NCBI GenBank assembly: GCA_030157865.1
Contig: JAOATY010000010.1
Span: forward strand, 3,987-67,986
Length of the DNA stretch: 64,000 nt
Reading direction: 5' to 3'
Source of the DNA: Candidatus Nanopelagicales bacterium
GTDB lineage: Bacteria > Actinomycetota > Actinomycetes > S36-B12 > UBA5976
Shown here: piece by piece, positions 39,670 through 45,317 of the stretch
Numbering within the stretch: position 1 is the first letter of the stretch
How the letters are laid out: every line of letters begins with the position of its first letter
The notes under the pieces: generated by a model
Told to the model about the DNA's origin: nothing
Database searches by the model: none
Seen by the model: the letters and a program-made list of their open reading frames with translations, nothing else
Translations under genes and position numbers: made by a program

Positions 39670-40896
39670 CTAAGATTCTGGCTTTATTAATCGGGCTGGC
39701 TTTACTGCCGAGTTCCCAAACTTTAAAGAGACCTGATCGATAGCCTCTTCTGCCTCGCGCCAACCTGAGTCCCGATCTGAGAACTCCAATTGAACCGAAG
39801 ATTCACTGGTTGGCACTAGTCCTGTGGCACGAACTCCTACCAGCCGGATGCGAGCACGCTGTAGATGCATAGCTTCAAACAAACTCTTGGCGGTCGCATA
39901 AATATCTGTTGCTAAATCAGTTGAAGCAGGTAGGGATTTACTGCGAGTCACCGAAGTAAAGTCAGCAAATCTGACTTTGATTGTGATGGTTCGGGAAAAG
40001 TAGTTCGCGGCACGAAGTCGCTTAGCAACCTTGTTACTTAGATCCAAGATTTGAGCCAAGATTTCTTCTGGGTCATCGATATCTGATTCAAAAGTTCGCT
40101 CTGCGCCAATACTTTTCTCTGCTTGATTTGGCGTTACAACTCGAGGATCTCGTCCCCATGACAATTCATATAAATGCTCTGCTGCTGCTTGACCAATAAC
40201 TCTGGTCAAAGTTTTGACTGGAGTGTTTGCAATGTCGGCAACATTAACTAGTCCAAGTCGAGAAAGTTGTTCTGCAGTCTTTTCACCAACGCCCCATAAC
40301 GCACCAATTGGTAACGGATGCAAAAACTCAATTACTTTGTCCGCGGGCACAACATGTAAGCCATCAGGTTTTGCAAAGTTAGTTGCAAGCTTTGCCACAA
40401 ACATGGTTGACGCTACGCCAACTGAGCAAGTGATCCCCTGTTCATCGCTCACTCGAGCTCTAATGACTTCACCAATCTGACTTGGTGTGCCCATAAGTTT
40501 TTGAGCTCCAGAAATATCCAAGAAGGCTTCATCAACCGAAAGTGGTTGGACTAATGGAGTTATTGATTCAAAAATTGCCATTACGTTTTCAGAAACTTCG
40601 GAATACTTTTCATGATCTGGCTCTACAACAATTGCGTTAGGTGCCAAGCGAAGTGCTCGCGACATTGGCATTGCCGAATGCACGCCAAGTTTTCGTGCCT
40701 CATATGTTGCCGACAAAACCACGCCACGGTTGCCGTCGTATCCAACAATTACTTGTTTACCAGCAAGACTTGGGTTTTCTCGAACTTCAACTAAGGCAAA
40801 GAAAGCGTCCATGTCGATGTGCAAAATGTTGCAGCCGGCGTCATCCCCTTGGGGATTGCGCGCCGAGTTTCCTCGGTTCAATTGCGAACGGCTCAT
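39670..40896 (-). CDS. dinB: DNA polymerase IV (Y family), catalytic residues intact
   Basis: HIDMDAFF, YEARKLGVHSAMP, SVDEAFLD, AKLA...KPDG, HhH LWGVG; clamp-like QLEF; C-terminal AIDQVSLKFG. Confidence 0.95.
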   Translation of the reverse strand: MSRSQLNRGNSARNPQGDDAGCNILHIDMDAFFALVEVRENPSLAGKQVIVGYDGNRGVVLSATYEARKLGVHSAMPMSRALRLAPNAIVVEPDHEKYSEVSENVMAIFESITPLVQPLSVDEAFLDISGAQKLMGTPSQIGEVIRARVSDEQGITCSVGVASTMFVAKLATNFAKPDGLHVVPADKVIEFLHPLPIGALWGVGEKTAEQLSRLGLVNVADIANTPVKTLTRVIGQAAAEHLYELSWGRDPRVVTPNQAEKSIGAERTFESDIDDPEEILAQILDLSNKVAKRLRAANYFSRTITIKVRFADFTSVTRSKSLPASTDLATDIYATAKSLFEAMHLQRARIRLVGVRATGLVPTSESSVQLEFSDRDSGWREAEEAIDQVSLKFGNSAVKPARLIKPES

Positions 40897-43800
40897 GGTG
40901 CCATCTTTGCGGCTGATCGCATAGATCTTGCGATATCCGACCCTGCGGGTCGAACGTCTGCGTACGGCGATGATCTAAATCCGCTCGCATGTTCCCAAAT
41001 TTGAGTTGGGGCTACTGGATCTAGTTGATGAACTGGAACATTTTGAATTAACTCCTCGACTGCTTTAACTCCGCCACGCTTCCAATGTTGGTAAACCTCA
41101 GATAACTCCCAGCAACCATTGGCAAGTATCGAAACTCCACGCGGACCAGTTCGACGGACTGTGCCACTAACTAAGAGCAACCAAGAGTGAAACAGTGTGG
41201 CGGCATATTGGTCTTGGGCTTCTTCAAAGAATGTCGCATCAACTGGACCAGTTGAATCTTCTAGCGTGATGAATGCAACTCGCTTTCCGGAACGAATGGG
41301 TGGAGTTTGTGTGGCGACTTTAACCCCAGCAATCAGCACGCTGGACTGTGAGCGAACTGTTAATAACTGATCAGCTGGCACTGCATTTAACTCAGTTAGC
41401 ATCTGGCGATAAAAGCTCATGACGTGAGCGCTTACATCAATACCTAGTACTTCAATTTCGTACCTAACTCGATCTGCCAGTGATAGTGCTGGCAATCCAG
41501 TTAGTTCAGGGATCCAGGCAGTCTCTTGCATACCTAATGAAATTTGGTTGCCTATTCGGGATCGCGCAGTTCGCTTTAACTTAAATTCTGCGCTTAGTTC
41601 GGCTGCGTGAAACAGCAAGTCACGCCTAGAAACTAATGATTCATGAAGTGCATCAAATCCACCAGCCAGAATTATTCGCTCCACAATTGGTCGGGATGCT
41701 TTACTGCGAATTACAAAGTCAGCTAATGATGAATACGGTTGAGCGGAAATGATGTCAGCAACTTCTTGCTCGCTAATTCCTTTTACTTCAGACAATGGAA
41801 TTCGAATTCCTTGGCTACCTACCTCAGTTACTTCAACTAGATAAGTGTCCTTTGAGACATTCACATCAAGGCCAAGAATTTCAACCCCAAAACTTCGGGC
41901 ATCATCAGCGATAAGTCGCTTTGGATACATGCCTGGGTCATGCGTTAGCACTCCAGCCAAGAAGGCTGCTGGGTGATGTGTCTTAAACCAGGCTGATTGA
42001 TATGTGGGCAGTGCAAAAGCAGCGGCGTGCGCTTTGCAAAAGCCGAAGGAAGCAAATGCCCGCAACACGTCCCAGACTTGTTCGATTACTGAGAGTTCAT
42101 AGTTACGACTTTTCAATGACCCATAAAACCATTCTCGGATTTCATCGAGTTGCTCGTAATCCCCCATACGACGGCGAATCAGATCAGCAGCTTCAAGTGA
42201 GCAACCAGTCATGACTGAAACGATTCGCATTACTTGTTCATGGAAAACTACAACTCCACTGGTTTCAGTAAGGATGTCTTTCAAGTCCGGGTGCATATAG
42301 TCAGTCATGCCCCAGCCCTGCCGAGCTCGAAGGAATGGCGTGATCATGTCGCTTTTAACTGGACCTGGACGAAACAGTGAAATGTCAGTGATCAAGTCGC
42401 CAAATGAGATTGGGGCAAACTTTCCAATTAACTCTCGTTGTCCAGGAGATTCAATTTGGAAGCAACCCAAAGTCTTAGTGCTTTGAATTAACTCAAAAGT
42501 TTTTGGATCATCGCGTGGCACTGATTCAAGATTGATTTTTCCAGTTGAGTCTGCGCCATAAGCCTCAGGTCCTTGAACTTGGTAAACCTGATCAATTGCA
42601 TAGGCCAAAGCTGACTGCATACGAACCCCAAGGACATCGAGTTTAAGCAATCCCATATGTTCAACGTCGTCTTTATCGAACTGCGACATTGGAAATTCTT
42701 GAGCGCTCGGTTGAACTGGCGTGCGCTGCAGCAATGAAAGGTCTGAAAGCACAATTCCGCACGGATGAAGCGCGGTATGTCTAGGTAGTCCGTCTAGTCC
42801 TTCAACTAAATCTAGGAATTGATCTAGATCGCCTCGAGCTGCTCGAACTCCAATTCCACTTCGTCGCAGTTCTGGTAATTCTGCTAAAGCACTTCGGATA
42901 TGACGAGCTCGGATGTGTGGAAATGATTTCGCAAAAGTGTTTATTTCTCCCGGCGGCATTCCCATGGCTGCGCCAACATCGCGAATCGCATGTCGGACTC
43001 GGTAAGTTTCGCGCATCGAAACACAAGTTGTTCGTTGATCACCAAATCGATCAAAGATTGCTTGATAAATTTCAATTCGCCGATCTGACTCCACGTCGAT
43101 ATCTATGTCAGGCAAACCTGGGCGAAGTGTGGAGATAAAACGTTCCATTAATAGGTTGTGTTTGATTGGATCTACGCCAGAAATTCCCAACAAGTGGTTA
43201 ATGAAACTTCCAGCACCTGAACCACGAGCTGCGACTCGAACTTTCATTTCTCGAATCATGTCCACAACTTGGGCAACTGTTAATACGTATCCGGCCAAAC
43301 CCATTTTCTTAATTACGGATAATTCAGAATCTAAGCGCTCTCGAGTGGCGCGACGGTCATCATCTCGAGTGACTGAATTGTCAGTCAAGTAGTTGGAAAA
43401 ACTAACCTCGCATCTTTCTTGCAGAATGCTGTCTGCGCTACGAGTTTCACCTGGCAATAACTTTGATAACTCGGGAACGTAAACCTGATTCATTCCCAGA
43501 TCTGATTGCGGATCGATTACGCATTCTTGGCCGAGTGCCACAGTTTGCCTAAGTAGCGCTTGTCCAATGTCTCGAGGGTCGCCAACCAGACTGGATACTC
43601 GTTGCGCAATTGCGCTCATGTGCTGACTTGAAGCCAAGAAAGCCTGACTGGTTGTGGCTTGATTTGATAACGCAACTTGTCGACGGGAAGCATCAAGTAC
43701 GTCTGCAATTCGAGAATCTTTAGGATCGCGATACCTAACAATGTTTGTTAGAACTGCTTGAGTTCTATGCACAATCGCCCACTGCAACATTCGAGCCGCA

Positions 43801-45293: not shown

Positions 45294-45295
45294 AC

Positions 45296-45317
45296 AGCAT
45301 AAGGCTAGCGGCAGACA
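45296..45317 (-). promoter_or_regulatory. PafBC/RecA-NDp-type promoter
   Basis: Minus strand TGTCTG-N10-TATGCT, 2 nt upstream of the LexA box. Confidence 0.65.

Follow-up and report, generated by a model that had tools for sequence, protein, structure and literature searches.

A probable LexA-repressed operon encoding ImuB-C, HEPN_SAV_6107, DnaE2-type and DinB proteins in a small actinobacterial genome

Organization of the Operon

The stretch of DNA analyzed here (the window; 64 kb, contig C10:3987-67986 of a 1.61-Mb genome) carries a group of four open reading frames (ORFs), all on the minus strand, that code in this order for a DUF6504/ImuB-C protein, a HEPN_SAV_6107 protein, a DnaE2-type DNA polymerase and DinB. 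The genome, assembled in 45 contigs, is 93% complete with ~48% G+C, and its host is probably a freshwater actinobacterium with a small, Nanopelagicales-like genome. The present work deals with this putative operon for translesion synthesis (TLS) and with the HEPN gene found within it. Coordinates are those of the window; lengths are in nucleotides (nt) or amino acids (aa).

45278..45293, no strand assigned: LexA (SOS) box TCGAACAAATGTTCGA (minus-strand reading), perfect TCGAAC-N4-GTTCGA
44929..45267, minus strand: ImuB-C (DUF6504), 112 aa from ATG 45267; PF20114, 37.2 bits (cut-off 24.2)
44400..44885, minus strand: HEPN_SAV_6107 gene, 161 aa; PF18726, 112.9 bits (cut-off 27.2)
40893..44384, minus strand: DnaE2-type C-family polymerase, 1163 aa; Pfam PHP, DNA_pol3_alpha, finger, HHH_6 and OB domains
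39670..40896, minus strand: DinB (DNA polymerase IV), 408 aa; IMS, IMS_HHH and IMS_C domains; NF003015, 400.4 bits (cut-off 367)

The junctions read from the sequence are 43 nt, 15 nt and a 4-nt overlap (ATGA) of the dinB start with the dnaE2 stop, which suggests translational coupling. The preliminary description of this DNA had listed the same four co-oriented genes, junctions and perfect LexA box, and all were confirmed. Genome-wide searches found a single gene with an IMS domain (PF00817), which is the dinB of the operon, one DUF6504 match, two DnaE genes and one gene each for RecA, LexA and DnaN, lexA being located on another contig than the operon. Neither ImuA' (NF058630; the best hit was a 31-bit cross-match on recA, the cut-off being 65) nor a second Y-family gene or a catalytically dead ImuB with fused DUF6504 was found in the 93%-complete genome. 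The absence of imuA'/imuB, proposed earlier and borne out by these searches with NF058630 and PF00817, is likely rather than proven because 7% of the genome is missing.

One 4884-nt metatranscriptome contig spans positions 40322-45256 across all three junctions. Its identity of ~90% shows that it comes from a relative, and we take it as a weak hint of co-transcription. Runs X10 and X11 and most contigs of run X6 gave short pieces only; the parts that they leave uncovered carry no meaning. A scan of positions 38500-46000 called fewer sigma-70 promoters (3 versus 9.0) and terminators (5 versus 7.7) than were called in shuffled sequences, with no convincing internal terminator in this segment, and is uninformative for an actinobacterium.

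LexA Box and SOS Control

The LexA box lies 11 nt before the ATG at 45267 of the first gene and abuts its ribosome-binding site; a GAAAGG sequence is found 6 nt upstream of this ATG. The start given in the ORF list is a TTG at 45318 (44929..45318). Because the box would sit inside the ORF starting at this TTG, the ATG is the likelier initiation codon. The box is the sole match in the 64-kb window when up to one mismatch is allowed (expected number 0.14; at least one match in 13 of 100 shuffles). Three perfect boxes are found in the 1.61-Mb genome, at this operon, ~200 nt upstream of recA and on contig C38 (C38:18385-18400), and three boxes with one mismatch lie just upstream of lexA. The boxes at recA and lexA identify TCGAAC-N4-GTTCGA as the LexA operator of this organism, and the operon is among the best LexA targets of its genome. 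A perfect box in the promoter region and a lexA gene in the genome, the two features by which members of an actinobacterial LexA regulon are recognized, are both present.

Related loci were surveyed in 60 HEPN-centred regions of 20 kb, searched with locally built profiles. They were taken from the 150 best-scoring of 237 HEPN matches, and most of the families with a listed place are represented at least once. Since long contigs were favoured and the best matches chosen, this survey is not random; the 61-genome sample described below is the unbiased one. Counting boxes upstream of ImuB-C, or of HEPN in loci that have no ImuB-C, 56 of the 60 loci carry a LexA box (46 perfect, 10 with one mismatch), and an ImuB-C homologue lies downstream of such a box, as in the window, in 38. 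The four loci without a box are L048 and three Streptomyces-like ones (L005, L006, L009), for which no LexA box was found within 1.6-2.5 kb upstream of HEPN.

The Stand-Alone ImuB-C Protein and the Two Polymerases

The product of the first gene had been described as a stand-alone ImuB-C-like domain, and the PF20114 match of the 112-aa ORF, which is not fused to DinB, upholds this assignment. A stand-alone ImuB-C protein thus occupies the operon head, as in the published operon type discussed below. The gene contains an internal repeat:

44985-45055, minus strand: 30-nt tandem repeat, 2.4 copies (Tandem Repeats Finder), inside the ImuB-C gene

In translation the repeat gives a low-complexity insert of NSGASDMGTP-like units that splits the DUF6504 domain match. 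A relative's contig (RNA run X3) is 60 nt shorter at this place, with its joint at 44985-45046.

The 1163-aa DnaE protein reached 653 bits with the NCBIfam model for DnaE1 and 624 bits with that for error-prone DnaE, both below cut-off. As NCBIfam cannot separate DnaE1 from DnaE2 in this case, the type was read from a tree of 44 DnaE proteins rooted with the DnaE1 of the window and limited to ORFs of at least 950 aa. In this tree the DnaE2 of the window clusters with 37 other DnaEs from ImuB-C/HEPN loci. The sister clade holds six DnaE2s found beside a weak Y-family (ImuB-like) match or HEPN, and ImuA' was verified in three of their loci. DnaE2 proteins have been split into groups A, B and X, with DnaE2B found in genomes lacking ImuA or ImuB (Timinskas et al. 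2026, PMC12926913). The protein of the window would accordingly be placed by our own tree, which is separate from the one of these authors, in an ImuA/ImuB-independent “DnaE2B”-like clade. In the alignment, the DnaE2 has no counterpart of the QFDLF segment present in the DnaE1 of the window. At this place most DnaE2 orthologues (L014-L062) carry a variable arginine/alanine-rich insertion with a conserved A-A-R-Q-S-Q-A-like end; the whole insertion is missing from the DnaE2 of the window. A replicative role for the 1163-aa DnaE was rejected, a full DnaE1 with QFDLF being encoded in the same window.

The DinB translation has intact catalytic motifs (DMDAFF and SVDE), and its NF003015 match is above cut-off. 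The protein, called catalytically intact in the preliminary description, is therefore still predicted to be an active enzyme, and a Y-family polymerase that seems to be active is also part of the published operon type. Two further motifs lie in its C-terminal part:

39778..39792, minus strand: QLEFS, DinB residues 369-373, aligning with the QLxL[G/D] clamp-binding-type motif of orthologues
39688..39762, minus strand: RecA-N-terminus-like motif WREAEEAIDQVSLKFGNSAVKPARL, DinB residues 379-403, from the orthologue alignment

The orthologues aligned come from 45 related loci with readable C-termini, and the consensus of their tails is GWREAExAVDRAxxRFGxGAVRPAxL. The only hhalign alignment of the DinB tail to the RecA of the same genome pairs DinB residues 383-398 with RecA residues 23-38 (N-terminal helix), with weak P values (0.0032 against the N-terminal 60 residues of RecA and 0.032 against its full length). 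BLASTP gave no alignment of the tail with the RecA N-terminus.

The HEPN_SAV_6107 Protein

The 161-aa product of the second gene is a clear member of the HEPN_SAV_6107 family (PF18726). Its AlphaFold2 model, built with 56 homologues, has a mean predicted local distance difference test score (pLDDT) of 78. It shows a confident helical bundle at residues 13-127 and a disordered tail at residues 132-161, where the pLDDT falls below 50. The best Foldseek matches in the PDB are the HEPN proteins 2hsb, 1wol, 3o10, 1ufb and 4nqf, with TM scores of 0.5-0.67. None of the PDB matches had E≤0.001, and with E values of 0.017 or worse the fold evidence is weak when taken alone. In the alignment, the invariant polar residues R107, D111 and R114 lie in the last helix, which we take to be where HEPN RNases carry the catalytic motif Rx4-6H. 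This motif was not found in the HEPN sequence of the window. The family as a whole is also listed as lacking it (Anantharaman et al. 2013, PMC3710099), so that the protein presumably works like a non-catalytic HEPN and its membership is unaffected.

Directly after the last helix lies a short conserved segment:

44475..44495, minus strand: tail motif RQLTLPT, HEPN residues 131-137, a candidate beta-clamp-binding motif

The family consensus at this place is LG[LV]xx[HR]Q[LP]x[LF]P. The alignment comprises the window's protein and 55 homologues, selected from the 120 listed by dropping fragments and near-duplicates by eye; Q132 is kept in at least 90% of these 56 sequences. A strict Q..[LFMIV]P within the last 60 residues is found in 64 of the 120 homologues listed, with RHLPVP, QLTLS and QMTLT among the variants. 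Positions 1, 2 and 4 of the motif are shared with QLPLWG, the essential clamp-binding motif of mycobacterial ImuB (PMC10421592). Qxx[LIVMF]x is kept in 33 of the 42 loci with an adjacent DnaE2 (one match being doubtful) and in 6 of the 18 without; since related genomes are not independent, this difference is a hint only. A second C-terminal element, NNVIPL[KR]R (residues ~149-161; 44400-44440), is common to close relatives (P0004-P0034) and missing from more distant family members. The tail of the Streptomyces-like proteins still reads QPVLPQ or QPALPQ.

A fusion of ImuB-C and HEPN in the same open frame was found in none of the 60 loci. Three of eight longer HEPN relatives show fusions with PHP or DNA_pol3_alpha, which are probably read-through or assembly artefacts; the eight were discounted as singletons with long arginine/proline-rich, out-of-frame-like stretches.

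A complex of two DnaN chains with HEPN was modelled from alignments of 24 DnaN and 56 HEPN sequences. The former left out five sequences from unpublished genomes (L078, L079, L093, L094, L095) and L090, a 416-aa ORF aligning only to query residue 353. The model scored 0.60 (runs 0.60, 0.62 and 0.50) compared to 0.21 for the best of three controls, with at least 77% of contacts shared between runs and a partner pLDDT of at least 72. The mark used for such models is reached by 58 of 80 solved complexes and by 2 of 110 mismatched pairs, but at scores up to 0.60 by only 7 of the 80 solved complexes and by both of the passing mismatches. We consider this weak support for HEPN-DnaN binding. The tail motif cannot be claimed as the point of contact because the model reported no contacts.

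Distribution of the Arrangement in Actinomycetes

The PF18726 family is found in 230 of 301 genomes drawn evenly from the class (125 of 150 genera) and in 29 of 401 genomes of an even sample of the phylum, in which it was not found in the seven genomes of genus g4. Four queries were cross-tabulated, with their positions combined, in an even sample of 61 genomes of the class that includes the one of the window. HEPN is present in 49 genomes, DUF6504 in 43, a DnaE2 like that of the window (identity of 42% or more and at least 730 bits) in 44 and ImuA' in 12, the last two never together (0 of 61). ImuB-C lies directly upstream of HEPN in 33 genomes and the order ImuB-C, HEPN, DnaE2 is found on one contig in 28; the other five are cut by contig ends (four) or have no DnaE2 of the window's type (one). 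When seven unpublished genomes are left out (n=54) the counts are 43 for HEPN, 36 for DUF6504, 37 for DnaE2, 12 for ImuA', 28 for the pair and 23 for the triple. HEPN accompanies 11 of the 12 ImuA' genomes. Of the 56 genomes that have one or the other DnaE2 system 48 contain it, compared to one of the five with neither. The composition of the operon, regarded as unusual in the preliminary description, turned out in this even sample to be the majority state (a DnaE2 like that of the window is encoded in 44 of 61 genomes), and for the class such an arrangement is the usual one, not an exception.

The full order of the window (ImuB-C, HEPN, DnaE2, DinB) is found with the same orientation in 36 of the 60 surveyed loci. 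In four loci HEPN is followed by an ImuB-like gene with a weak Y-family match, by a DnaE2 from the other clade and by DinB; in three of these the gene right after HEPN is ImuA' (NF058630, 175-180 bits). Two loci have a DnaE2 of the other clade upstream of HEPN and two are partial. Named carriers of the full cluster include Frankiales, Mycobacteriales and Nanopelagicales assemblies, Ornithinimicrobium and Kineosporia. They were taken from a list of 80 loci derived from the HEPN alignment, which is mostly composed of Streptomyces and serves for named examples, not as an unbiased sample.

A class I S-adenosylmethionine (SAM)-dependent methyltransferase is a recurrent, co-oriented fifth gene in 36 of the 60 loci and is not present in the window. 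It is usually found just before DinB, or right after HEPN where DinB or DnaE2 is missing, and matches Methyltransf_11/12/23/25 with a weak likeness to CmoM (for example L023:10414-11142 and L036:9076-9873). Loci L102, L164, L171 and L044 (for instance a Marmoricola assembly) have a LexA box and the order ImuB-C, HEPN, methyltransferase, DinB with no DnaE2. They are a variant of the PolY/ImuB-C type that still keeps HEPN. In one Streptomyces-like genome (G024) a DnaE2 of the window's type is encoded on another contig than HEPN.

Genomic Setting

The operon is preceded by a gene of the histone-deacetylase family (Pfam) and followed, in this order, by genes for a DUF3040 protein and a MaoC-type dehydratase and then by mraZ, mraW, the gene of a penicillin-binding protein (PBP), murE and murF. 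Other features of the window are:

29798-37571, minus strand: head of the dcw cluster (mraZ, mraW, PBP, murE, murF)
9657-13262, minus strand: replicative dnaE1, 1202-aa frame, QFDLF at residues 959-963
16107-19280, plus strand: open frame of 1058 aa, situated between dnaE1 and the remainder of the window

The dnaE1 gene and the head of the dcw cluster flank the TLS block in the same window, which places it in a conserved core region of the genome. Among the 80 loci listed, the closest named relative of the HEPN protein is encoded by a Candidatus Nanopelagicales metagenome-assembled genome (97% identity). The word shares in the RNA runs were small (0.05-0.16) and habitat could not be read from them.

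Proposed Function and Alternative Explanations

We regard it as fairly probable that the locus is a LexA-repressed operon of an ImuA/ImuB-independent DnaE2 system, of a type already published, to which HEPN is attached as an accessory. DNA damage would activate RecA, LexA would leave its single box and the four genes would be transcribed together. DinB would be the Y-family core, bearing one motif of the clamp-binding type and another that resembles the RecA N-terminus. ImuB-C would hold DnaE2, by analogy with the modelled interface between ImuB-C and the DnaE2 PHP domain in the canonical mutasome, and we infer that the proteins would act as a complex in which DnaE2 and/or DinB copy past lesions. 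HEPN may be a conserved, SOS-co-regulated accessory of the DnaE2B machinery as well as of the canonical ImuA'-ImuB-DnaE2 cassettes, and would most likely contact the beta clamp via its Q-x-x-[L/F]-P tail motif as an adaptor or regulator of polymerase access.

The place of HEPN in the gene order, the LexA box, the presence of HEPN alongside both kinds of DnaE2 system and the clamp-motif-like tail all speak for a role in the handling of SOS polymerases. That it is an accessory of the TLS machinery seems to us the probable reading. HEPN is absent from some ImuB-C/DnaE2 pairs and present in genomes without DnaE2, which argues for an accessory or for a protein of wider role. The earlier suggestion of HEPN as a fourth subunit holds in so far as conservation supports a functional link; modelling lends weak support to binding, and six genomes have no HEPN at that place. 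Likewise, the proposal that RecA may replace ImuA' agrees with the one RecA of the genome and with the RecA-like tail of DinB; the likeness is weak and the idea had been published.

Several observations weigh against this reading of the operon. The published claims on the complex are AlphaFold models alone, of a system that is experimentally uncharacterised (PMC12926913). RNA-library contigs may contain DNA and cannot prove a single transcript, transcription as such or induction, and the simple sigma-70 scan called no promoter at the LexA box. The likeness of the DinB tail to the RecA N-terminus, as judged by sequence comparison, is statistically weak. DinB already bears a clamp-type motif, so that the system has no need of a second contact with the clamp. 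The DnaN-HEPN score falls in a band (0.60) that is more often wrong than right unless the guess is likely beforehand, and came without a reported interface. As for HEPN itself, ImuB-C abuts DnaE2 without it in 6 of 61 genomes (G009, G402, G408, G424, G436, G449), in two of which it is found elsewhere behind its own box, so that HEPN is not obligatory at this slot; in seven of the DnaE2B genomes no match to HEPN was found anywhere. Six of the 60 loci show HEPN and then DinB without DnaE2 (a SAM methyltransferase lies between them in five), ten, including Streptomyces-like loci, have HEPN but lack ImuB-C, DnaE2 and DinB, and in 47 of the 80 listed loci, mostly from Streptomyces, HEPN stands beside a methyltransferase only, without box. 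Given these HEPN loci that lack DnaE2, part of the linkage may be old synteny by the dcw cluster.

The alternative that survives best keeps the published operon and removes HEPN from it. HEPN would be an independent gene of the SOS regulon, for instance for a nucleic-acid-binding or stress protein, retained by inherited gene order and the shared promoter. It would explain why 16 of the 60 loci have no adjacent DnaE2 or ImuB-C, why the methyltransferase is the sole companion in most Streptomyces loci and why ImuB-C is joined directly to DnaE2 in six genomes. High-confidence models of the complex were reached without HEPN (PMC12926913) and the block lies in a conserved core region beside mraZ-mraW-murE-murF. 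However, the slot between ImuB-C and DnaE2 is kept in 28 of 61 genomes from many families, HEPN also heads ImuA'-ImuB-DnaE2 cassettes and its presence follows that of a DnaE2 system (48 of 56 genomes versus one of five). The tail motif is moreover commoner where DnaE2 is adjacent, and modelling lends the clamp contact weak support. We find this explanation somewhat unlikely, though worth serious attention.

A bolder version of the accessory role is doubtful to a slightly greater degree: HEPN might be an unrecognised LexA-controlled part of both kinds of mutasome, a non-catalytic bundle whose tail docks on the beta clamp. It would then tether DnaE2, which is without the clamp motif of DnaE1, or gate the exchange of polymerases at stalled forks.

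It is also conceivable, and in our view improbable, that no multi-subunit mutasome exists and that the genes are merely co-regulated, DinB acting by itself on the clamp as a usual Pol IV and DnaE2 forming a separate unit with ImuB-C. DinB indeed retains every catalytic residue and a clamp-type motif of its own, its gene is separated from dnaE2 by more than 800 nt in 21 of the 36 complete loci (with the methyltransferase in 20 of these gaps), and ImuB-C/DnaE2 pairs occur, a DnaE2-[ImuB-C]-only type being published as well (PMC12926913). Against such a division, DinB follows DnaE2 in 36 of 60 loci, the window's dinB overlaps the dnaE2 stop by 4 nt in a manner suggestive of translational coupling, and the conserved RecA-N-terminus-like tail is a feature used by the published complex model.

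An active or residual damage-induced nuclease or toxin-like HEPN module unrelated to the polymerases is very improbable: most families of the HEPN superfamily are RNases (PMC3710099) and the last helix contains the invariant polar residues R107, D111 and R114, but the family is listed there without Rx4-6H, none is found in the window's protein, no antitoxin-like partner such as a nucleotidyltransferase was seen in the conserved block, and a single-copy gene present in 230 of 301 genomes of the class differs from mobile toxin modules.

DnaE2 systems drive damage-induced and drug-resistance mutation in Actinobacteria, and nearly all experiments on them concern the mycobacterial ImuA'-ImuB-DnaE2. 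Our survey indicates that class-wide the ImuA/ImuB-free form is commoner than the ImuA' form (44 versus 12 of 61 sampled genomes), and that the small HEPN protein accompanies both behind a LexA box. If it contacts the clamp or the polymerases, the published subunit lists and structural models are incomplete, and were the clamp-docking idea true, induced mutagenesis in most Actinomycetes would depend on an omitted fifth protein. If it makes no such contact, the locus is no more than a further example, from a streamlined freshwater actinobacterium, of an operon type already described.

Comparison with Known Systems

The closest relative is the fourth DnaE2B group of Timinskas et al., which combines DnaE2B with an active PolY, a stand-alone ImuB-C and RecA, is found in Actinobacteria only and is represented by Tessaracoccus lapidicaptus; AlphaFold supports a DnaE2-[ImuB-C]-PolY-RecA complex (PMC12926913). 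The window has the same set, with no ImuA or ImuB found in its genome. It differs from this type, as do most sampled members, by the additional HEPN between ImuB-C and DnaE2. Variants without ImuA had been described before, with RecA proposed to replace ImuA and ImuB split into ImuB-C and a Y-family protein (Timinskas and Venclovas 2019, PMC6511836), and ImuB-C was named by Aravind et al. (2013), with stand-alone copies in DinB and DnaE2 operons (PMC3765255). The operon type is hence already described by computation. The preliminary statement that no characterised system has this composition remains correct as to characterisation and fails as to description (PMC12926913, PMC6511836).

HEPN in its slot is the part not found in print. 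The term has no occurrence in the main text of PMC12926913, whose supplementary tables may list the neighbour, and is unmentioned in the main texts of PMC3765255 and PMC6511836, Supplementary Table S4 of the latter being another place where it may be listed. In the main texts searched, which did not extend to subscription journals or to ~1.7 million further PMC articles, no paper links HEPN with dnaE2, nothing relevant links HEPN with imuB, “DUF6504” is named in no paper, and “SAV_6107” and “DnaE2B” are named in one paper each.

The ImuA'-ImuB-DnaE2 mutasome of mycobacteria was reportedly presented by Warner et al. in 2010. Like the operon studied here it is SOS-controlled, based on DnaE2 and provided with an ImuB-C domain (Gessner et al. 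2023, PMC10421592), and motifs similar to the QLPLWG of mycobacterial ImuB are found here in DinB and in the HEPN tail. Unlike it, the window has neither ImuA' nor a dead ImuB with ImuB-C, the components of the canonical ImuA(')-ImuB-DnaE2 cassette; its Y-family motifs are intact and the DnaE2s of the two systems belong to sister clades. Canonical ImuA'-ImuB-DnaE2 cassettes with HEPN at their head are also found in other Actinomycetes.

The dnaE2-dinB2 pair of Streptomyces, said to have been studied by Tsai et al. in 2012, has in common with the window a B-type DnaE2, a Y-family gene and the lack of ImuA and ImuB. It has been classed as DnaE2B-iPolY-RecA (PMC12926913). Its Y-family partner is inactive and ImuB-C is missing (PMC6511836), whereas the window has an active-type DinB and ImuB-C. 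HEPN is found elsewhere in Streptomyces-like loci, beside a methyltransferase and without a LexA box, unlike in the window. Geobacter's lexA - imuB-C - polY operon (PMC3765255, PMC6511836) resembles the window in that ImuB-C and an active Y-family polymerase are encoded in a damage-inducible operon that ImuB-C heads. It has neither DnaE2 nor HEPN and contains lexA, which in the window's genome lies on another contig.

Finally, the HEPN-M (SAV_6107) family was defined as actinobacterial and without Rx4-6H, with no gene context or function listed (PMC3710099). The protein of the window conforms to it as an actinobacterial PF18726 member likewise devoid of Rx4-6H. The SOS box, the linkage to DnaE2 and the tail motif of the SAV_6107 family described here go beyond the entry in the table of that work.

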